Source: Coriobacteriia bacterium (GTDB lineage Bacteria > Actinomycetota > Coriobacteriia > Anaerosomatales > PHET01). From it: a DNA stretch of 64,000 bases. Below the pieces are notes generated by a model, which saw only the letters and a list, made by a program, of their open reading frames with translations, was not told where the DNA came from and ran no database searches. This document shows positions 1 through 9,090 of this stretch, in pieces. The first letter of the stretch is position 1; every line of letters starts with the position of its first letter. Both the position numbers and the translations under genes were made by a program. The stretch is from the NCBI GenBank assembly GCA_035687245.1, contig DASRYH010000008.1, forward strand, positions 180,138-244,137. Direction: 5' to 3'.

Positions 1-396
1 CTCAGGATGATCTGGAAGGACCAAACCTACGTGGCAGCCTCAATCGACCAAGATTATGGTGTCGGCGTCGAAATGGCCAAGGGCTATGACGCTGCGGCCG
101 ACCTTTCAGGCGGAGAGGATGTCTGCTTGGCCCTGTCCTTCAGCCAGGCGCTTGGCCGAGTATCTGACTTCGACGTGCCGCTGGTCTTTGATAGCCCCCT
201 AGTCAAGGTCGATGACGAGGTGAAGGTGCTCGTTGCGCAGACGATGCTCAAGAACCTGAACGGACGCCAGCTCATACTGCTTATGAAGCCGGACGAGTTT
301 GGTGCAGTTGAGAGCACTTTCGTCGAGAGCGGGGTCTCATCGGTGGTTCGAATTGAATTTGACGAAGCAGCCCAGTCGACCACGGTGGTGATCTAG
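1..396 (+). CDS. C-terminal fragment (5' end outside window) of an SMC/ABC-type ATPase resembling DndD-family proteins
   Basis: The frame is open to nt 1. The translation has an ABC-signature-like LSGGE, then about 25 aa later VPLVFDSPLVKVDD (hydrophobic-D Walker B/D-loop), then QLILLMKPDEF. Order and spacing match the LSxGE...PhhhDTPLGRLD...QhhhLSTDxE C-terminus I recall for DndD/SMC-like ATPases. The TAG stop (394-396) overlaps the GTG of the next ORF by 1 nt. Confidence 0.6.
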   Translation, partial: LRMIWKDQTYVAASIDQDYGVGVEMAKGYDAAADLSGGEDVCLALSFSQALGRVSDFDVPLVFDSPLVKVDDEVKVLVAQTMLKNLNGRQLILLMKPDEFGAVESTFVESGVSSVVRIEFDEAAQSTTVVI

Positions 397-818
397 TGGC
401 TCAGAGAGACCGTGTATACATCGACGGCGAACGCCGCGGTGAATTTGAGACCCTTGCGCGCCGAATGGGCGGCGTGGACAACAAGGACGCATTTCTCTTT
501 GCTATGTCATATGGTTTCGCTCACGGTATGCGCAAGCCGTTCAGGGATCGGTACGGCTTCGTGCTGTCTAAGTACTTCAACGAGGAAGACCACTGCCTAA
601 TGGCAGCGGTGGCGATGGCAGGGCGAGATGAGATTAGCGAGGACTTCTCGATGGATGAGGCATACGGCATCGCGGAGGAGTACGCCCGCGGTGGCATCGG
701 GCTACTGAGAGAGCAACTCGCTGACGGCGTTGAGTTCCGTGAGAACTTGTCAATCGAGGTTCTTCAGACAGCCGCAGGGCTAGCGATAAGTGAACGAAGC
801 GGGGATGCAACAGAGTGA
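396..818 (+). CDS. Small (140 aa) hypothetical protein, possibly DndE-like DNA-binding protein
   Basis: GTG start overlaps the upstream stop (TAGTG) and its stop overlaps the next start (GTGA at 815-818). It sits directly after the DndD-like ATPase, as dndE follows dndD. The segment GGVDNKDAFLFAMSYGFAHG ... YFNEEDHCLMAAVAMAG loosely parallels my recollection of DndE (GITPNVLCRFALMYSLEEG ... EFNAYTLTGEY..LL.ALV). The assignment comes from memory only and is weak. Confidence 0.45.
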   Translation: MAQRDRVYIDGERRGEFETLARRMGGVDNKDAFLFAMSYGFAHGMRKPFRDRYGFVLSKYFNEEDHCLMAAVAMAGRDEISEDFSMDEAYGIAEEYARGGIGLLREQLADGVEFRENLSIEVLQTAAGLAISERSGDATE

Positions 819-2047
819 GCAAGATCCTGCTGGTTCAACCCAGATTCCCGCTGCCCGCCAAGAGCCTGAACCACAAGGACTACTTGCCGATCGGGCTTCT
901 GAAGCTCTCGACCTGGCACAAGGAGCAGGGTGACGAAGTTCAGGCCGACTTCGGTGTGTATCGCATTCGCGAGGACTGGGTACCAGACACTATTTACGTC
1001 ACGTCCCTGTTCACCTACTGGGCAAATGCTGTTCGTGAGGCTGTACGCTTCTATCGGGATGCGTATGGCAGTGGCGCGGAGATTGTCGTCGGAGGCATAT
1101 ATGCCTCCCTTGAACCGGTGCACTGCAAGCAGCACACCGGATGCGACCGCGTCCATGAGGGTGTCCACGTGCAGGCGGAAGCGTTGTCACACACTCTGGC
1201 ACCCGACTACGGCCTACTGGAGCCAGAGCCGGAGTTCCAAATTGTCCATGCCTCGAGGGGCTGCATCCGCAAATGCACGTTCTGTGGAACTCATAGAATC
1301 GAGGAGGAGTTTCTGCCAAAGGCCTCCATCATGAGTGAGTTGAAGAAGAACCACTTGGTCTTCTACGACAACAACCTTCTGGCCAATCCCTACATCGGGG
1401 ACATCTTTGAGGAAATCGCGTCAACAAGAATGCATGGCCGTGTCATCACTTGTGAGAGCCAGAGCGGGATAGATGGGCGAATACTCCGAAAGGAACCGCA
1501 TCTCGCCGCTGCGATGAAGCGAGCTAGATTCAAGAATGTCCGCATCGCATGGGACGCGGGATTGGGTGAGCGGGGACGGGTTGCAGAGCAGCTTCAGATC
1601 CTCGAAGATGCGGGATTCTCCCGCAAGGAGATCCAGGTCTTCATGATCTACAACCATGACCTCGATCCCGAGGTGATGGTGGAGAAGGCGCAGCAGTGCT
1701 TCGATTGGGGCGTGCAAGTCTCAGATTGTCGCTACCGCCCGCTCGATGCCTTCAGTGACGGTTATCGGCCAATGAAGAAGTCGCAGGATCGTGGTGAGTA
1801 TCACATCCACCCGAACTGGTCTGACGCAGACGTAAGAGCTTTTCGTCGCCTCGTTCGCGAAAACAACATCTGCATTCGCTACGGCATTCCGAAAGACAGA
1901 TACGATCAGCGGCTTGAGGGCTTCTCAAGGCATGCTCGGGTTGAGATCGCTGAGATGCTTGGAATTGACGGACGCCTCAAGCACTCAGACTCGGAGCTCG
2001 CTCGAATCAATGAGGAATGGCTCAAGTCGCGCGAGGTGCATGGGTGA
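815..2047 (+). CDS. B12-binding-domain-type (class B-like) radical SAM protein
   Basis: The N-terminus (KILLVQPRFP...DYLPIGLLKLSTWHKEQGDEV...PDTIYVTS...IVVGGIYASLEP) has the pattern of the B12-binding-like Rossmann domain of class B radical SAM enzymes. It is followed by HASRGCIRKCTFCG, a CxxxCxxC 4Fe-4S/SAM motif. Both junctions are GTGA 4-nt overlaps. Confidence 0.8.
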   Translation: MSKILLVQPRFPLPAKSLNHKDYLPIGLLKLSTWHKEQGDEVQADFGVYRIREDWVPDTIYVTSLFTYWANAVREAVRFYRDAYGSGAEIVVGGIYASLEPVHCKQHTGCDRVHEGVHVQAEALSHTLAPDYGLLEPEPEFQIVHASRGCIRKCTFCGTHRIEEEFLPKASIMSELKKNHLVFYDNNLLANPYIGDIFEEIASTRMHGRVITCESQSGIDGRILRKEPHLAAAMKRARFKNVRIAWDAGLGERGRVAEQLQILEDAGFSRKEIQVFMIYNHDLDPEVMVEKAQQCFDWGVQVSDCRYRPLDAFSDGYRPMKKSQDRGEYHIHPNWSDADVRAFRRLVRENNICIRYGIPKDRYDQRLEGFSRHARVEIAEMLGIDGRLKHSDSELARINEEWLKSREVHG

Positions 2048-4491
2048 GCGTCTTTGACGATCCGTCTGACTGGGGCGTGGGACCCACGGGACTCTTCGGA
2101 CGAGTAGTTCGGTATCCGAGAAGGGGACAGGCTCTCGTGCCTGTCGCTCTTCAAAGGGATCTGGACTTGGCCTTGCCATCGGGCTACAGACGCATTGGAT
2201 TCCGCCGCTATTCAGACCTGAACGAGAAGGTGTGGCATGCCTTCACCGAGCACGAATGCCTTTGCCTCGCAGACAAGGCATCCGCGGAATTGAGGAGTAT
2301 TCCTCCCGAGCGTCTGTCCATCGGACCGCGCAAACTCGGGGAATTGTACGGGAGTGAGTCTCCAGCCAATCCCATCGTACTGGGCGCGCGCTCCTGGAAT
2401 CGATTTAGGCTCGGAAGAATCACGACCTGGAGTCAGATGGCTGAGATGACACCGAGTGATCTGCTCTCGATTCGCAGCTTTGGGACTAAGGCGCTGCTTG
2501 ATGTTCTGGTCGCCACGGAGTCCGCCTTCTGGAGTCAGCCTCAAGCCCCTGAGCCGAGCATCAGCCGGATTGTCACGACTCCTTGGAGACGAAGTCCGAG
2601 CCGCTTTCCGAGGCCGACACACAGCCTGGTGCCTCGTGTACTTGCGCCGCTACTTCAGTGCGCCATGCCGTCAGGACTTCAGCGCTCTGGGTTCTCGAAC
2701 TTCGGGGACTTGGATGACCGCGTATGGTCTGTCTACCAGCCGATAGAGATCGTGCGGCTGACGGATCTCGCCGCCAGTGCAGTACAGGGCGTGCGTACAT
2801 CGCTTCCACCCAAACTAGGCCTCGCGCAGCTCCAGGACCTTTTTGCGCTGGAGGGTGGCCAAGTTGACTTGACTGTCAGAACAAGGAATTGCCTTGGGCG
2901 AGCAGGCCTCAACACTTGGGAGAGACTCGGCGCAGCAACCATTAGTGAGATCCTGTCTATTGGCGGTTTTGGCGCTCTGAGCTTCATGGACCTGCTGACC
3001 TCGATTGAGTCCATCTCACGCCTGAATCCTCTCGAGGATTCCATCTACTCTCGCAGACGAGTTCTAGAGCCGCTTGATCTGGGTTCTCGTCCGTTGGACG
3101 TGGCTCTTCGAGAAGTACTCTGTCAGGCGGCCAAGAACGAACGCGCAAGCGAGATGATGCTATTGCGCCACGGCTGGGGTGGAACGGCACCGCTGACACT
3201 CGAGGAAACCGCACGCCGGTTCGGCGTCACTCGCGAGCGCATTCGACAGATTTGCAAGAAGGTAGAGTCTCGGATCTTGGAGGCGGGTGTAGCGGGGACC
3301 GCACTCACCGATGCGCTGGCTGTAGCTGGATCCAGCATCCCGATGGACAAGGCGCTGCTGGAGAGGACCTTGCTTACGCAGGGGCTTGTTCAAGACGCCT
3401 TCTCAGTGGAGTCACTGCTCGATGCGGCGCGGTTCTTCGGCGCAGAAGCCAGCTTCCGTATACGGGGTGACCAGGTCGTCTCGCTGGATAGTGTGACTGA
3501 CGAGGATGATATCGGCGACGCGATTCACTCGCTGATGTCACGCTGTTCAATTCGTGCGTACGCCGACCTAGTTTGCGCCGCTGGCGCTGAAGAGTCCCAT
3601 GATGACGATCTGCGCCATGCCATTGATGAGGACCCGGAACTCCTATGGCTTGATGATGAGAGAAGCTGGGTCGGGATGCCGTCCTTAGTGGCCACCAAGG
3701 ATCGAGTTGGCAACCGACTGAGGAAAGCCCTGGCTATGGCTGACACCGCACTCTCAATAGAGTCGATGGTCGATGCTGTAGGTAGAGACAGGCGAGGCGT
3801 CGAGGTTCCAAGCTCAGTGATGCAGGTGTATGCGACGAACAGCCCGTGGCTGCAGCAGGATGGGGCTCGTTTCGCTGCGGCCCCACCACTTAGGGGCGAG
3901 GAAGTTCTTCAGGGCGCGGAGCTTCAACTGGTCCGGGCGCTTAGGGATGAAGGCGGCATTGCACACCTCCACGATCTATGGTCCGTCGCCTATCGGCTGG
4001 GAGTGGGGAAGGTGAACTTCCACCGCTTGCTCGCCGAGTCTCCATGCGTAGTCAAACACGGGCCTTGTGTGTACGGGCTCAGGGGTGCGGACGTTTCGGC
4101 AAACGAAGTGTACGAGCGCGTACGTGAGGTCGAGAAGCATCGAGCGGTTCGTCTTGGAGGCAGTGGCCCGGTCACCTGGGTACTGTGGCGTCTCGCGGCC
4201 AGCGGCATCCGTATGGGGCGATGTAGTCTCCGGCAAGTGCCCTCAGGGCTAGTCGAGGGCACATATGACGTTCGGGTCGACGAGTCCGGGCCAAGCTTTC
4301 CGGTGAGAGTCGAAGACAACATAGTCTGCGGCGCCCTTGGAAGTCTCCTTAGAGTCATAGAGGCGTCTTCTGGCCGCCTGCTGCTACTTGTACTTGATGG
4401 CGCATCAATGTCCGGGACAGGAATGCTGGTCGGCGATCAATGGTCAATTGCCGACGATGACGAGATCGATGAGTTGGTCGGAACCCTCTGA
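2044..4491 (+). CDS. Large multidomain protein: two RNA polymerase alpha-CTD-like (HhH) modules + sigma-70 region 4.2-like HTH + unassigned C-terminal half
   Basis: The start could be ATG 2017 (31-nt overlap) or GTG 2044 (GTGA overlap with the radical SAM stop). I prefer 2044 because every other junction in this operon is an overlap of this kind. [49 protein letters not shown] aligns residue for residue with E. coli alpha-CTD [48 protein letters not shown]. A weaker copy is [72 protein letters not shown] matches sigma-70 region 4.2 ([27 protein letters not shown]). Confidence 0.7.
   Translation: [815 protein letters not shown]
2131..3012 (+). repeat. Intragenic tandem duplication of a module of about 130 aa (about 2131-2523 and 2623-3012)
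   Basis: [38 protein letters not shown] and [38 protein letters not shown] share 16 of 38 identical positions in my hand alignment. Each copy ends in an alpha-CTD-like HhH motif. Confidence 0.6.
3193..3279 (+). other. Sigma-70 region 4.2-like helix-turn-helix segment inside the large protein
   Basis: It translates as [38 protein letters not shown] is the hallmark core of sigma-70 region 4.2. Confidence 0.7.
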
Positions 4492-4845
4492 GTTTCGCGC
4501 GTTCTGATTGTCACTCGTACACCAGACGACCCAGAAGTGCATCAGACCACCCGGTCCCCCGGCGAGTCCTCCTGTCGGACGTCCACTAGCTTGACGCATC
4601 GCGGTGTAGTCGCCACGACCGTGGTCTGCCGATGTAATAGTGATTTGTGAGCTAGTGAGCGAGCGAGATTCTCACCGCCGCTAGTCGTGGGATGGCGACA
4701 GGGTTGATCGAGGGAACTTTGTGAGCTGCGAATTCTCATTCATTTCGGCTCCTGCACTACCCCCTCTTGGCCCGCGCCGGGGGTCTGTTGTGCTTGCCTG
4801 TTCTCGTTGCTAGGCAGAATGCTGACCGGTGGCGTTGCCGTGGAA

Positions 4846-5244
4846 TCAGCCGATTCCCAATTCCTTCAGAACCAAGGCGACTGCGTCCACCGTGGCTGGC
4901 TGGCCGAAGTGATACTTGCGATGACAACTTGCACACAGCGAGATGCACACGCTCGCGTCGATATCAGTGCGTGATTGTCGCTCCCATTTTGAGTAGACGT
5001 GGTGATTGTCCAACGCGCCCTGGTAGTCCTCGCCGCAGACAACGCACGGTCTTCGTTTGCGGGGACGCCTCTGTGGGTTGGCCGCAGGCAGAGGAGCGGG
5101 CCGCCCGGTGCGACCTATTGCCAACCGCGGCTGTCGGACAGAACCACCCCGTATCTCCGCGATCCACTCACCATAGTGTGACGAGAGCCACTCACTTGGT
5201 GGGGTCCACTCGGGTTCGTGCTCTGTCACGCGAGGTCCCCTCAC
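4846..5244 (-). CDS. HNH endonuclease family protein
   Basis: CVVCGE...DNHHV...LCASCHRKYH forms a Cys-pair / His-Asn-His type HNH motif in a basic 132-aa protein. It is on the opposite strand to the surrounding island genes. Confidence 0.65.
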   Translation of the reverse strand: MRGPRVTEHEPEWTPPSEWLSSHYGEWIAEIRGGSVRQPRLAIGRTGRPAPLPAANPQRRPRKRRPCVVCGEDYQGALDNHHVYSKWERQSRTDIDASVCISLCASCHRKYHFGQPATVDAVALVLKELGIG

Positions 5245-5905
5245 GAACGAGCCGGACCTTCGCCAGTTCGCGCAGGACCGACGTACTAAGGTGGTCAGTC
5301 CTTGTGACGATTCTTACCACAGACCGTGCGAACGGGACAGGATGGCATCCCTTGGGTGATTCATCACCGGGTCAGCGCTCGCCGTGGCTGACCCCCGCTT
5401 CTCCTGAGAAGAGGTAGCGATATGCCACTGATCACAGACCGTGGCCATGCTCCGGCGAAAAGGGTAGTGATGTGTGGCACCAGCCGTCGGCTCCACAGAA
5501 GGTATGAAGAATAGGCCTTAGTTCGTCAGGATGCCCCCATACTCAAGTCAGGCGGGGATGGATGGGCATTCTCGGGGGTCCACAGGCACTACATGAGGCC
5601 AATCTGGACCAATAGGCCCCTAGTTTGTTCAAGAGGGCCCACACTGATCGAAGACAAGACCACCAGGCAGAGAGGGGACCGATCCGAGGTAGCGACATTT
5701 CAGGGCGCGCCTACAGCAGGGGCGAACGCACCGACCGAGCACTGCTAACACTCTGAGCCTCTTCGGCTCACAACTCACGTACCCGCATAGATGAACCGGC
5801 CATTGCTGTCTTTGGCTTGTTCGGTCACGTCCAGAAGGCCCCTGATGCCCCCAAACAAGCACTTCGTGTTCGTGACTGCGGAAATCGATTCTGAAAACCC
5901 TTTGA

Positions 5906-6331
5906 TTGGTTAGGAGACCAATGCAGCTGATCTTCGACGACCTGGGCTACAAGCTCGTTCCCTACGCTTCTGGCCTTTGCTACGAAATCTGGCGATATCT
6001 GCCCGAGCGCATCGCCAAGCGGGGTCGGACGTCCGGCAAGGTGGCGCCCGCGGGATGGAAGTCGATCGACTGTTATCCCGTAGATCCCCATGCAGGGGCG
6101 CTGAAGGTTTACAGCCTTTGCGTCAATGCCGACCCCTCAGTTCATCAGCATTGGGAGAGCGCGGTTAAGCGCATGGAGGAGATTCGCGACTCCATCCTCC
6201 GTGCCACATGGCGTGAGGTGGGAGACGATGCACCGCCACGCTCGCTCTGTAACTGCGGCAATCAGTGCGCGTGTCGTAGCACCGCCACCAACCCCCCGGT
6301 AGGGGGGTGTGTCTCGGAGCGGGACTCCTAA
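5906..6331 (+). CDS. Hypothetical island protein (Cys-rich C-terminus CNCGNQCAC)
   Basis: The ORF is followed by a good hairpin terminator at 6378-6397. I recognise no motif. The start may be ATG 5921. Confidence 0.35.
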   Translation: MVRRPMQLIFDDLGYKLVPYASGLCYEIWRYLPERIAKRGRTSGKVAPAGWKSIDCYPVDPHAGALKVYSLCVNADPSVHQHWESAVKRMEEIRDSILRATWREVGDDAPPRSLCNCGNQCACRSTATNPPVGGCVSERDS

Positions 6332-6461: not shown

Positions 6462-6659
6462 ATGAACCTCGATAACGCGGAAGAAGTCCTGACGATCAGC
6501 GAGGTGGCGAAGCTCCTCCGTATTGGACGCAACACGGCATATCGCATGGCGAAGCGGAAGACGATCCCGACCCTCAGTCTTGGCCGCCGCCTGGTAGTGC
6601 CGAAGCGAGCACTTCTCATCATGCTCTCTGATGGCTGTTCGTTCGTCGGAGTGCAGTAG
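6462..6659 (+). CDS. Excisionase/MerR-like helix-turn-helix DNA-binding protein (Xis-like)
   Basis: ATG 6462 is preceded by AAAGGA. The 65-aa product contains LTISEVAKLLRIGRNTAYRMAKRKTIPTLSLGRRLVVPK, typical of the excisionase-family HTH_17 pattern. Its stop is immediately followed by the ATG of the next gene (TAG-ATG at 6657-6662). Confidence 0.7.
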   Translation: MNLDNAEEVLTISEVAKLLRIGRNTAYRMAKRKTIPTLSLGRRLVVPKRALLIMLSDGCSFVGVQ

Positions 6660-7649
6660 ATGGCGGGCCTCGGAATCATCTCTTTGGAGGACGTTGCCAC
6701 TACGGAGATGGAGTGGCTTTGGCCGGGATGGATTCCGAAAGGAGCACTGACGTTCCTGGTGGGGGATCCAGGAGTAGGGAAGTCCAGTCTCTCTTGGGAC
6801 CTGGCCGCCCGACTTAGTACCGGGGACGATCTTCCGGATGGCGGCGAGGGTAGGTCGGGCAGGGCACTGATCATCTCTGGTGAGGATGGGCTTTCTGACT
6901 GGATTCGCCCCCAGCTCATCGCGTACGGAGCGCGAATCGACAACATCTCGGCGATGAACATGCGATCCCAGGAGCGGGGACTCAGGCTCGACACCGATTG
7001 CGAGGAGCTGGAGCGACTCGTGGACAAGAAGAACATCGAGCTCGTCATCATTGATCCGCTTGACGCGTTCCTGGGCCGCAGCAATCCGAACAGTGGTGCG
7101 GACATCAGGGCCATCACCAATGGTCTGGCAGGACTTGCGCAGAGGACGGGAGCGGCTGTTCTTGTCCTGCATCACTTCAACAAGAAGGAGAAGGCGGCCG
7201 CCGGCCACCGCGTCTCGGGTTCGATCGACTTGGTGGGGGCGGCTCGCTCGGTGCTCTACCTCGTCGTGCATCGGCGCAAGAACACGCATCGCATCTTGTA
7301 CCGGCAGAAGGGGAACTGCGGCCGGGCCCCACAGCCCATGCTGCTCGGACTTGGTAAGGGCGAGCGCTTGGAGTGGAGTCAGACGCCCGACGACTTCGAC
7401 TTGGATACGTACGCGACGGGTCGCAGGAGCGCCGCGGTAGCTGAGGCAGTGCGCTTTCTCAAGACGATCATGGACGAACACAACGGATGTGTTGAATCGT
7501 CTGTGGTGCTCAGGGAGGCTGCAGCCGCAGGGATTTCCCGGCACGCCCTCGAGAGGGCAAAGGACGAACTCTGTGTGTCTTCGAGGAAGAGTAAGAGCAA
7601 GTTCAAGGGTGGCTGGGCGTACTGCTACGAGGAGGACGAGGAGTCCTAG
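6660..7649 (+). CDS. RecA-like AAA ATPase of mobile elements (AAA_25 / RepA-like)
   Basis: It has Walker A GDPGVGKSS and Walker B LVIIDPLDAFLG, and the N-terminus EWLWPGWIPKGALTFLVG is typical of the phage/ICE AAA_25 family. It lies between the Xis-like gene and the integrase. Confidence 0.7.
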   Translation: MAGLGIISLEDVATTEMEWLWPGWIPKGALTFLVGDPGVGKSSLSWDLAARLSTGDDLPDGGEGRSGRALIISGEDGLSDWIRPQLIAYGARIDNISAMNMRSQERGLRLDTDCEELERLVDKKNIELVIIDPLDAFLGRSNPNSGADIRAITNGLAGLAQRTGAAVLVLHHFNKKEKAAAGHRVSGSIDLVGAARSVLYLVVHRRKNTHRILYRQKGNCGRAPQPMLLGLGKGERLEWSQTPDDFDLDTYATGRRSAAVAEAVRFLKTIMDEHNGCVESSVVLREAAAAGISRHALERAKDELCVSSRKSKSKFKGGWAYCYEEDEES

Positions 7650-7827: not shown

Positions 7828-8967
7828 TTGGAAATGGAAAAGACATCGAGCGGAAGGTACAAGGTCCGCATCTGGGACAAGCATCTCTGCAAGAAGGTCT
7901 ACGTAGGGACCTATCCCACGAAGACCGCCGCCAGGACGGCAGGGACGCAAGCTGAGCTTCGATTGCTCACTTTCGGTCACCTGCCCGAGCACAAGGACAT
8001 CACGCTGGTCGCTCTGTGCGATCGCTACATCGAGATGAACCCTCAGCTCCGCACAAGCACGATCGACTGGTATGCGAATGCGCTCAAGAAGGCACGCGCC
8101 TTCTTTGGCGATGAGGCCAGTGTCAGACGTATGTCCAAGGAAGACATGCAGTCCTACGTTTCGAGCCTCATTTCTCAGAAGAAGGCATCGAAGACGGTCG
8201 TGGGCTACCTCAAGGCACTCGGGGCGGTGTTCGAGCAGGCGGTTGAGTGGGGCTATCGCGAGAGCAATCCCTGCCGCAAGCTCCGCAATCTACCGGAGAA
8301 CCGGCGAGCAGATGACGCAATCCGCGTACTGAGCACCACGGAGCACGCACGATTGGCGGATTCGGCCCCGGGTCACTACAGGACGATGGTATCGGTGTGG
8401 CCTTTCATCGGACTTCGCCGCTCAGAGATGCAGGGCCTGCGGTGGGAAGACGTCGACTTGGTTGGTGGCCGGCTGCACGTAAGGCACCAGCTCCGTGAGG
8501 ACGGAAGCCTCGATCCTAACCTCAAAACGCGTAAGTCCCGGCGAACGATCGTGATGCCGCAAAACGTAGTGAACGAGCTTCGCAAGTGGCGCTTGGAGAG
8601 CAAGCCCAACCTGCTCGACCTCGTCTTCCCAACGCAGCAGGGTCTGCCGCAAACCTCTAAGCCGAACTTCTACAGTTGGTGGAACAAGGCGTGTGCAAAG
8701 GCAGGCCTCGCCGGCTGCAATCCCCACGACATGCGGCACACTTTCGCCACGTGGTCTTTGGCGGCAGGGGAGAACCCCAAACGGGTCGCCGACGAGATGG
8801 GGCACGAGAAGACGTCGATGATGCTCGACACGTATCTTCACCTGCTCGTTGACGACAATGTAGGGGGTACAAAGCGGCTCGAGGAATGGTACTATTCTCA
8901 GGCTGCTACGAGCGGGATGGATGCAAGTACCGCCCCTATACCGCCCCTGAAGGCCTCAAACGCCTGA
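7828..8967 (+). CDS. Tyrosine recombinase / phage-type integrase
   Basis: The N-terminal SAM-like core-binding region is followed by the catalytic domain: GLRRSE (Arg I), HDMRHTFATWSL (His-x-x-Arg) and GHEKTSMMLDTYLHL (His ... catalytic Tyr). The start is TTG 7828 or ATG 7834. The gene ends 47 nt before tRNA-Pro. Confidence 0.85.
   Translation: MEMEKTSSGRYKVRIWDKHLCKKVYVGTYPTKTAARTAGTQAELRLLTFGHLPEHKDITLVALCDRYIEMNPQLRTSTIDWYANALKKARAFFGDEASVRRMSKEDMQSYVSSLISQKKASKTVVGYLKALGAVFEQAVEWGYRESNPCRKLRNLPENRRADDAIRVLSTTEHARLADSAPGHYRTMVSVWPFIGLRRSEMQGLRWEDVDLVGGRLHVRHQLREDGSLDPNLKTRKSRRTIVMPQNVVNELRKWRLESKPNLLDLVFPTQQGLPQTSKPNFYSWWNKACAKAGLAGCNPHDMRHTFATWSLAAGENPKRVADEMGHEKTSMMLDTYLHLLVDDNVGGTKRLEEWYYSQAATSGMDASTAPIPPLKASNA

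Positions 8968-9013: not shown

Positions 9014-9090
<77 letters not shown>

Follow-up and report, generated by a model that had tools for sequence, protein, structure and literature searches.

The object of this study is a gene near the start of a 64,000-nucleotide stretch of DNA from a metagenome-assembled genome of a Coriobacteriia bacterium (assembly GCA_035687245.1, contig DASRYH010000008.1, positions 180,138 to 244,137 of the forward strand), the whole of which we call the window. The product of this gene, hereafter the target protein, strings together about nine modules for binding nucleic acids and has no catalytic domain. Two modules resembling the carboxy-terminal domain of the RNA polymerase alpha subunit (alpha-CTD) are followed by region 4 of sigma-70 and by a C-terminal half predicted to consist of four winged helices and a beta-domain, and the protein belongs to an unnamed family that shares this alpha-CTD, sigma-4, four-winged-helix and beta-barrel order. 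The gene is the last one of an operon that appears to be a variant of the Pbe, or CxC ABC ATPase-DndE, class extended by two genes, and this operon is the cargo of an integrative island. We consider it an even chance that the target protein serves as the non-catalytic subunit for DNA recognition or targeting in a six-gene Pbe-like defence operon on an island at a tRNA-Pro gene.

The target gene and the parts of its product are arranged as follows, where residue numbers in amino acids (aa) refer to the 824-aa frame that begins at the ATG at 2017.

2044 to 4491, forward strand: target gene (two alpha-CTD modules, sigma region 4, four winged helices, B3-like barrel), 815 aa from the GTG at 2044
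2110 to 2523, forward strand: module 1 (aa 32-169), an N-terminal YPRxG helical segment and a diverged alpha-CTD-like helix-hairpin-helix (aa 116-169), from its repeat with module 2 and a weaker PF03118 stretch
2602 to 3021, forward strand: module 2 (aa 196-335), a YPRxG-type helical segment and an alpha-CTD-like domain (aa 280-335), with PF03118 at aa 282-325
3094 to 3282, forward strand: sigma-70 region 4 helix-turn-helix (aa 360-422) with recognition helix TRERIRQ, from PF04545 and Foldseek
3298 to 4080, forward strand: four predicted tandem winged-helix domains (aa 428-489, 495-553, 563-621 and 633-688), from AlphaFold2 and Foldseek
4147 to 4431, forward strand: predicted C-terminal beta-domain of seven strands and two helices (aa 711-805), tentatively a B3 / EcoRII-N-like pseudobarrel, from AlphaFold2 and Foldseek

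Regarding the gene start, the open reading frame ending at 4491 on the forward strand can also be read from the ATG at 2017, which gives 824 aa. The GTG at 2044 is the likelier start, because a Shine-Dalgarno motif (GAGGTG) lies 5 nucleotides upstream of it, because it overlaps, as GTGA, the codon that terminates the radical SAM gene before it, and because an independent gene call on identical DNA (locus L001) begins at the same position. The target gene is thus translationally coupled to the radical SAM gene. The NCBI annotation of the gene (P0001, 593 aa) begins at residue 232 of the reading frame, so that module 1 and half of module 2 are omitted (the region concerned is 2017-2710); the omitted part has homology with the module that is kept as well as with the N-terminal regions of family members.

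The initial annotation, which was made from the letters of the window alone, had proposed an alpha-CTD, a second and more diverged copy of it inside a duplicated module, and a region 4.2 of sigma-70, and all three are borne out by profile searches. The Pfam model RNA_pol_A_CTD (PF03118) matches the target protein in two stretches with an E-value of 3.7e-11 and 43 bits against a cutoff of 23.8, the best stretch being aa 282-325, and a phmmer search against all sequences of the PDB returns solely region 4 chains of sigma-A/RpoD and alpha-CTD chains of RpoA, module 2 aligning with the RpoA chains of B. subtilis and Mycobacterium. The duplication is evident from the comparison of aa 32-169 with aa 196-332, which are 32% identical over 142 columns (BLASTP E 2e-22), giving a module of about 138 aa repeated at an offset of 164 aa. 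For residue equivalents (the 265 determinant, and sigma-70 residues 583-589) we used the E. coli alpha and sigma-70 sequences and numbering. Read from the sequence on this basis, module 2 retains the equivalents of alpha R265, N268, C269, G296 and S299 while module 1 retains those of R265, N268, G296 and K298, so the protein appears to possess the alpha-CTD fold with most of its DNA-binding 265 determinant; the R265 equivalents are R125 in module 1 and R288 in module 2. A first AlphaFold2 run on the full length with 6 sequences reached a mean predicted local distance difference test (pLDDT) of 56, and its N-terminal 350 aa, which include the YPRxG segments of about 85 aa, are unusable.

As for sigma region 4, the Pfam model Sigma70_r4 (PF04545) matches aa 374-415 with an E-value of 3.2e-7 and 30.2 bits against a cutoff of 24.1, and the recognition helix TRERIRQ is identical to residues 583-589 of E. 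coli sigma-70. Structures of sigma-A region 4 are matched by Foldseek in the PDB at 38-41% identity with a root-mean-square deviation of 2-2.8 Å. The spacing between the second alpha-CTD and sigma region 4 is only about 25 residues.

The C-terminal residues, about 400 in number, were initially described as lacking any recognisable motif, a description which no longer holds once their structure is predicted. An AlphaFold2 model of aa 350-824, built with a family alignment of 102 sequences, has a pLDDT of 91.1 and a predicted TM-score of 0.76, and places in order the sigma-4 helix-turn-helix, four winged helices, a linker helix, the beta-domain and a terminal helix. For the winged-helix array the best Foldseek match in the PDB is the four-winged-helix C-terminal fragment of SelB (1lva, E 5.9e-5); the likeness lies in four winged helices in a row and is one of fold only, since the array of SelB binds RNA. 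The beta-domain finds the plant B3 domains LEC2, FUS3, VAL1 and VRN1 with probabilities of 0.96-1.0 and a target-normalised TM-score of about 0.5, and in the model its strands and helices follow a B3-like order; since the E-values are only 0.02-0.1, its assignment as a B3 / EcoRII-N-like DNA-binding pseudobarrel is tentative. The likenesses of the target to SelB, to HARE-HTH and to the B3 / EcoRII-N / BfiI-C group are all at the level of fold, with 9-16% identity. No Pfam match to HARE-HTH (PF05066) is present in the target protein, and a relative (P0006) matches this model with an E-value of 1.2e-8 in the region that corresponds to the winged helices. Since the C-terminal 400 aa or so are predicted to fold into winged helices and a B3-like barrel, the protein has no catalytic domain, and searches over its whole length with Pfam, NCBIfam and PADLOC likewise found no enzymatic domain.

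Word-indexed searches returned 6 and then 4 matches, with relatives at 23-30% identity, and would make the target a nearly unique protein; an exhaustive profile search showed that this was an artefact of their sensitivity. Among 1.84 billion cluster representatives (50% identity), about 1,266 match the profile at E <= 1e-30, and the best 150 of the matches score 390-760 bits over most of the profile. That the target itself is a member is clear from its 430 bits against the C-terminal family profile and from collinear full-length BLASTP alignments with P0080 (806 columns, E 4e-56) and with the homologue in L094 (533 columns, E 3e-48). One relative, P0004 (L003 6296-8467), was excluded from the profiles for its long Arg/Gly-rich stretches in place of conserved sequence, which are probably assembly frameshifts. 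Sigma70_r4 is found in 50 and RNA_pol_A_CTD in 40 of 55 diverse members scanned; the combination of alpha-CTD with sigma-4, which had at first been thought unusual, is therefore what defines a large family. No Pfam model covers the C-terminal 400 aa, and the full-length protein has neither a Pfam nor an NCBIfam model. In the source databases members are called hypothetical or go by unspecific names such as "XRE family regulator", "sigma factor-like HTH DNA-binding protein" and "alpha C-terminal domain-containing protein".

The number of alpha-CTD modules varies in the family. Among 133 top matches with a detectable module, 92 have one, 37 have two as the target does, and 4 have three. The sigma-4 pattern T/S-R/K-E-R-x-R-Q is conserved position by position in 46-55 of the 55 members, and of the alpha equivalents R265 is kept in 34/42, G296 in 35/36, N268 in 25/42 and C269 in 23/42. 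Judged from these alignments, the residues with which RNA polymerase contacts UP-element and -35 DNA are retained in the target and across the family, which together with an architecture made of DNA-binding domains fits the early proposal of a DNA-targeting or regulatory subunit. The alpha-CTDs of some members are about 57% identical to genuine RpoA, and those of two other Pbe-linked homologues are too diverged for detection by Pfam. The N-termini of relatives vary further, with an XRE helix-turn-helix in a plasmid homologue and an integrase SAM-like domain in P0006, a protein of 928 aa (L002 155-2941) which carries after this domain three near-canonical alpha-CTDs, a sigma-4 and the HARE-HTH match mentioned above. 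No relatives were found in IMG/VR viral contigs, and none in BFVD beyond matches to sigma-4, so these viral collections give no sign of a phage-encoded origin.

The target gene is the last of a run of co-oriented and overlapping genes in the window, whose preceding members are:

1 to 396, forward strand: 3' part of the gene for a coiled-coil ABC ATPase of CxC type (PbeC/DndD-like), truncated at position 1 of the window (PADLOC PbeC E 5.9e-19; NCBIfam DndD C-terminus E 3.8e-9)
396 to 818, forward strand: DndE-like (PbeD-like, dnd_assoc_4) small protein of 140 aa (TIGR04062 E 4.6e-6)
815 to 2047, forward strand: B12-binding-like / radical SAM enzyme (410 aa; motif CxxxCxxC), which the Pfam models Radical_SAM and B12-binding match weakly

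The same order of six genes occurs in two further lineages (L091/L092 and L093/L094), which were found via two relatives of the radical SAM enzyme. The first gene encodes a PLD/HKD-SF2 helicase (705-737 aa in L091-L094) and the second a small protein of about 63 aa; next come the genes for a CxC ABC ATPase of 658-664 aa, which has CIC or CVC near residue 343, for a DndE-like protein and for the B12/radical SAM enzyme, and the last gene encodes a homologue of the target (728-820 aa, E 1e-37 to 1e-50). Regarding the ATPase of the window, its CxC motif falls outside the window and its assignment to PbeC comes from the C-terminal 130 aa, which are 62% identical to the C-terminus of the L094 ATPase (658 aa, CVC at about residue 342). 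The DndE-like protein scores 26.9 bits with TIGR04062, under the curated cutoff of 74.25, and the identical gene in L001 carries a precomputed PF27807 match; it is 43% identical to its counterpart in L094 and 34% to that in L092, in both of which its position is conserved. The radical SAM enzyme is 54-56% identical to the genes at the same position in L092 and L094. Compared with L094, the identity is thus 62% for the ATPase fragment, 56% for the radical SAM enzyme and 43% for the DndE-like protein, but 30% for the target, which diverges much faster than its operon partners.

Genes for Dnd proteins, PAPS reductases or methylases are absent from the 10 kb around the operon in L091-L094, where the radical SAM gene occupies the place of DNA-modification genes. 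The radical SAM enzyme itself belongs to a family of 1,929 matches with a mean column identity of about 50% and many invariant cysteines beyond CxxxCxxC, which includes archaeal DPANN members. No relative of solved structure was found for it by sequence or profile search, and its plasmid and viral relatives are merely distant. This family occurs in at least three conflict-type settings, namely the Pbe-like operon, a neighbourhood with AIPR and an SLFN-like helicase (L096/L097), and a ParB_N type (L095), in which the radical SAM gene follows a ParB_N protein and a 505-aa protein inside a conjugative element. The operon copy of L093/L094 is flanked by a KAP NTPase and a 472-aa gene, and on the other side by a MazG-like gene and an SLFN-like helicase (L093 1562-4778 and 13860-16139), surroundings which look like a defence island.

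Downstream of the operon, the window continues with the following features:

4846 to 5244, reverse strand: small HNH-like reading frame (Pfam HNH E 0.0022, under the cutoff)
about 5906 to 6331: reading frame of 136-141 aa without any match, in the rest of the island
about 6462 to 6659: HTH_17 excisionase-like gene, in the rest of the island
6660 to 7649, forward strand: AAA_25 (RepA/RadA-like) ATPase of an integrative element (Pfam PF13481 E 6.9e-35)
7828 to 8967, forward strand: tyrosine integrase of the island (Pfam Phage_integrase E 1.8e-21)
9014 to 9090, forward strand: tRNA-Pro (GGG), found with ARAGORN, at which the island probably integrated and has its boundary

That the operon is island cargo is concluded from the integrase, the AAA_25 ATPase, the tRNA-Pro gene, a step in G+C content (0.56-0.60 in the first 10 kb of the window and 0.61-0.66 beyond), and the housekeeping functions which fill the remaining 55 kb. 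The host's own rpoA and rpoD lie outside the window. In addition, the operons of L091 and L092 are followed by a tail of HTH_17 and integrase genes like that of the window, and since this tail is shared, related integrative elements seem to carry the system in Coriobacteriia.

In order to place the family in other genomic settings, 80 metagenome loci found with the C-terminal profile were surveyed by our own calling and clustering of reading frames. A GHKL ATPase of about 550 aa occurs in 39 of the loci, usually directly upstream and on the same strand, and its gene is present in 25 of the 36 loci whose upstream sequence extends over 1.8 kb or more. This ATPase carries HATPase_c_3 (PF13589), its N-terminus resembles the restriction enzymes BbrUII/HgiDII, and it has a weak match to MzaB (E 1.7e-4). 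One gene upstream of it, 24 loci encode a 190-aa protein without family match, so that a three-gene operon emerges which consists of the 190-aa protein, the GHKL ATPase and the protein with alpha-CTD, sigma-4 and winged helices (examples are L011 at 1025-5511, L012, L023, L033, L047, L067 and about 30 others). It matches no PADLOC system, and we recognised neither a nuclease nor any other effector among its products. None of the 80 surveyed loci contains relatives of the DndE-like, radical SAM or PbeC genes. The linkage to ATPase and radical SAM genes, which had been put forward as a test, thus stands for the window, L091/L092 and L093/L094 but fails for most sampled members, which are either linked to GHKL (25 of 36) or, in about 30% of the sample, stand alone.

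Other members are found in more varied settings. The gene for P0006 is immediately followed by a type 4 BREX locus, which encodes a PAPS reductase, DUF4007, a protein of 1,222 aa, PglZ and BrxL. Homologues on plasmids stand among conjugative or leading-region-like genes, for instance L009 10840-13398 on the plasmid of Rhodoferax ferrireducens T118 and L010 11443-13302 on a Piscinibacter plasmid; these two share sigma-4 and the C-terminal region, have an XRE-type N-terminus or one without alpha-CTD, and are neighboured by long arrays of small hypothetical genes or by genes that are characteristic of conjugative elements (DUF1845, DUF932, toprim). Members with one module stand alone in one lineage with conserved synteny, a HIT-family gene being upstream and the hydrogenase-maturation genes HycI/HypA/HypB downstream, a context which hints at a role outside defence. 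Such stand-alone examples with one module are:

9473 to 13498 of L007
L008
8948 to 11745 of L063
the contexts of P0002 and P0004

Taken together, these observations suggest how the target protein might work as the DNA-recognition subunit of the operon. The pair of alpha-CTD and sigma-4, arranged in the upstream-to-downstream order of a promoter, would read an A/T-tract plus -35-like DNA, and the array of winged helices and the barrel would either contact more of the DNA or hold partner proteins. Such binding would place or license the DNA-clamping ABC/DndE ATPase on target DNA, along with which the HKD-helicase nuclease and/or the radical SAM enzyme would be positioned. The family pairs with DNA-acting ATPases of two unrelated classes, ABC and GHKL, and because it pairs elsewhere mostly with a GHKL/MORC-like ATPase, a general role as DNA-targeting partner of ATPase machines is suggested.

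Several points weigh against this reading. The upstream half of the operon in question (the HKD-SF2 helicase and the small protein) would lie beyond position 1 of the window and is deduced from L091-L094, and the independent instances of the six-gene operon number only three. The Pbe-linked members form no obvious clade by BLAST, so the association with the Pbe operon may have arisen repeatedly, or divergence may have erased the signal. The radical SAM enzyme is also found without a target-type protein, as in its AIPR/SLFN-like and ParB-like settings, so that the two are separable modules. Since the stand-alone members, which make up about 30% of those sampled, sit amid housekeeping genes (HIT, HypA, HycI, ThrRS, glycosyl hydrolase), an ATPase partner is not a requirement for the family, which may work simply as a regulator that binds DNA. 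Last, the conservation of sigma-4 and alpha-CTD would be equally expected if these domains mimicked RNA polymerase for a protein partner.

The first alternative, which we regard as unlikely, is that the target protein is a regulator or silencer of transcription which binds promoter DNA of the -35 and UP type and shuts RNA polymerase out. Its purpose would be the autoregulation of the operon or of the island, or else the silencing of promoters on DNA that is incoming or A/T-rich. This alternative would account for a protein with DNA-binding domains only and a sigma-4 recognition helix identical to that of primary sigma factors, for the many members which stand alone in housekeeping neighbourhoods with conserved synteny, for source names which denote sigma-like or XRE-family regulators, and for the plasmid homologues amid arrays of small genes, where many plasmid regulators are found. 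However, with 700-900 aa and seven to nine domains the family is far above the typical size of an operon regulator, and the target gene is neither divergent nor first but the last in its operon, translationally coupled, just as members are consistently co-oriented directly downstream of an ATPase gene, be it GHKL or ABC. Its fast divergence relative to its partners would also be less expected of an autoregulator than of a subunit for specificity or sensing.

Secondly, the protein could be a decoy or guard, in which alpha-CTD and sigma-4 imitate the parts of RNA polymerase that phages attack and whose modification or binding switches on the ATPase/nuclease system. The attacks envisaged are the ADP-ribosylation of alpha R265 and the binding of anti-sigma or appropriator proteins to sigma region 4. 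The equivalent of R265 in both modules, a sigma-4 surface near that of primary sigma factors, alpha-CTDs in some members closer to RpoA than DNA binding would obviously need, and a fast-evolving subunit in a defence setting are all in keeping with it, and among the PDB structures that neighbour the sigma-4 domain are complexes in which a phage protein (G1 ORF67, 4g6d) is bound to sigma region 4. Yet relatives swap the N-terminal modules for unrelated DNA-binding domains (XRE, integrase SAM-like), which argues for DNA binding rather than mimicry; the alpha-CTDs of the two other Pbe-linked homologues would make poor mimics, no role would fall to the four winged helices or to the B3-like barrel, and the stand-alone members in housekeeping contexts do not fit. 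We therefore think a decoy quite improbable. A docking on RNA polymerase itself, with sigma-4 on the beta-flap and alpha-CTD on activator surfaces, in competition with sigma and so as to stall or redirect transcription during infection, could claim the match of the sigma-4 to sigma-A region 4 / beta-flap chimera structures at 38-41% identity, but it is very improbable, as sigma regions 2 and 3 and the alpha N-terminal domain are absent, core-binding determinants are mostly missing and the gene contexts give no pointer to RNA polymerase.

A wider proposal, which we regard as rather unlikely, is that the whole family is a portable promoter reader, with alpha-CTD for UP elements and sigma-4 for the -35 element, which guides ATPase machines, or else an integrated decoy. 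If the former were true, machines such as the CxC ABC/DndE and MORC-like GHKL ATPases would find foreign DNA that resembles strong promoters or is A/T-rich in order to silence or cut it, and in the operon of the window this would be coupled to an undescribed radical SAM chemistry on DNA or nucleotides; in either case a new route of invader recognition would exist in bacterial immunity, which would reuse the promoter-recognition hardware of the cell. If the more ordinary reading holds, the target is another multi-domain DNA-binding accessory subunit of the kind found in BREX and Dnd proteins. New in any event are the domain map and three recurring genomic settings of a large family without a full-length model, and a six-gene variant of the Pbe / CxC-ABC class, in which the usual place of phosphorothioation or methylation genes is taken by those for a radical SAM enzyme and for a DNA-binding protein of RNA polymerase descent. 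These offer a handle on how Pbe-type systems, the mechanism of which is disputed, choose their DNA targets.

Among known systems, the closest is PbeABCD (Xiong et al. 2019, PMC6459918), re-annotated as the CxC ABC ATPase-DndE class in PMC10853773. In common with it, the window operon has the PbeC-like CxC coiled-coil ABC ATPase and a DndE-like protein, its putative cognate, to which the homologous loci L091-L094 add the PbeA-like HKD-SF2 helicase and the PbeB-like protein of about 63 aa. The difference lies in the two conserved genes after the PbeD-like one, for the B12/radical SAM enzyme and the alpha-CTD/sigma-4 protein, neither of which is mentioned in the description of the class in PMC10853773, and in L091-L094 no dndCDEA phosphorothioation genes or methylases adjoin the operon.

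As for the commonest setting of the family, its HATPase_c_3 GHKL ATPase recalls the prokaryotic MORC/paraMORC GHKL systems, although the locus in the window has no GHKL ATPase; in the account of MORC GHKL systems by Iyer, Abhiman and Aravind (2008, PMC2292703), domains of sigma or RNA polymerase do not come up. The GHKL operon was also compared with CapK/CapS, a GHKL kinase with a repressor (PMC13373217), and this identity was rejected, CapK being anti-sigma-kinase-like and CapS a STAS-domain protein. No description of the family, of the GHKL triad or of the six-gene variant was found in the papers searched. MzaA of the MZA system is likewise a large defence-associated protein with a sigma-70 region 4, and it has a GHKL ATPase partner (MzaB) as most of the family does. 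The target is nevertheless not MzaA (NF041931 / PDLC02203), since it scores 39.7 bits against a cutoff of 800 and aligns only over the 42 residues 374-415; in MzaA region 4 is C-terminal (positions 655-696 of 726), and outside it the two proteins are unrelated.

With respect to the parents of its domains, the target is homologous to RNA polymerase subunits in both sequence and fold and appears to have retained the DNA-contact residues. It is neither RpoA, since PF03118 is matched without the alpha N-terminal domain and the RpoA models of NCBIfam give 33-36 bits against cutoffs of 228-434, nor a sigma factor, since region 4 is present without region 2 and the sigma70-ECF superfamily model gives 20.4 bits against 42.9. 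It lacks the alpha N-terminal assembly domain and sigma regions 1-3, and fuses both parental domains with five further DNA-binding domains, as predicted. A similar arrangement is described for the central region of PglW from type 2 BREX, where an RNA polymerase alpha-CTD-like helical domain is followed by three winged helices (PMC12839542), and the PglW model is matched by the relative in L011 over alpha-CTD, sigma-4 and the first winged helix (E 8.5e-9 with NCBIfam and 1.8e-8 with PADLOC). The target itself is not a PglW, having no kinase, NERD nuclease or inactive STAND domain and no significant match to PglW in NCBIfam or PADLOC. More generally, BrxL, PglW and DndH use domains of these kinds, sigma-like helix-turn-helix and alpha-CTD-like, as accessories for DNA binding (PMC12839542, PMC10853773), and the sigma-like helix-turn-helix of the target fits the general pattern of BrxL, DndH and MzaA.

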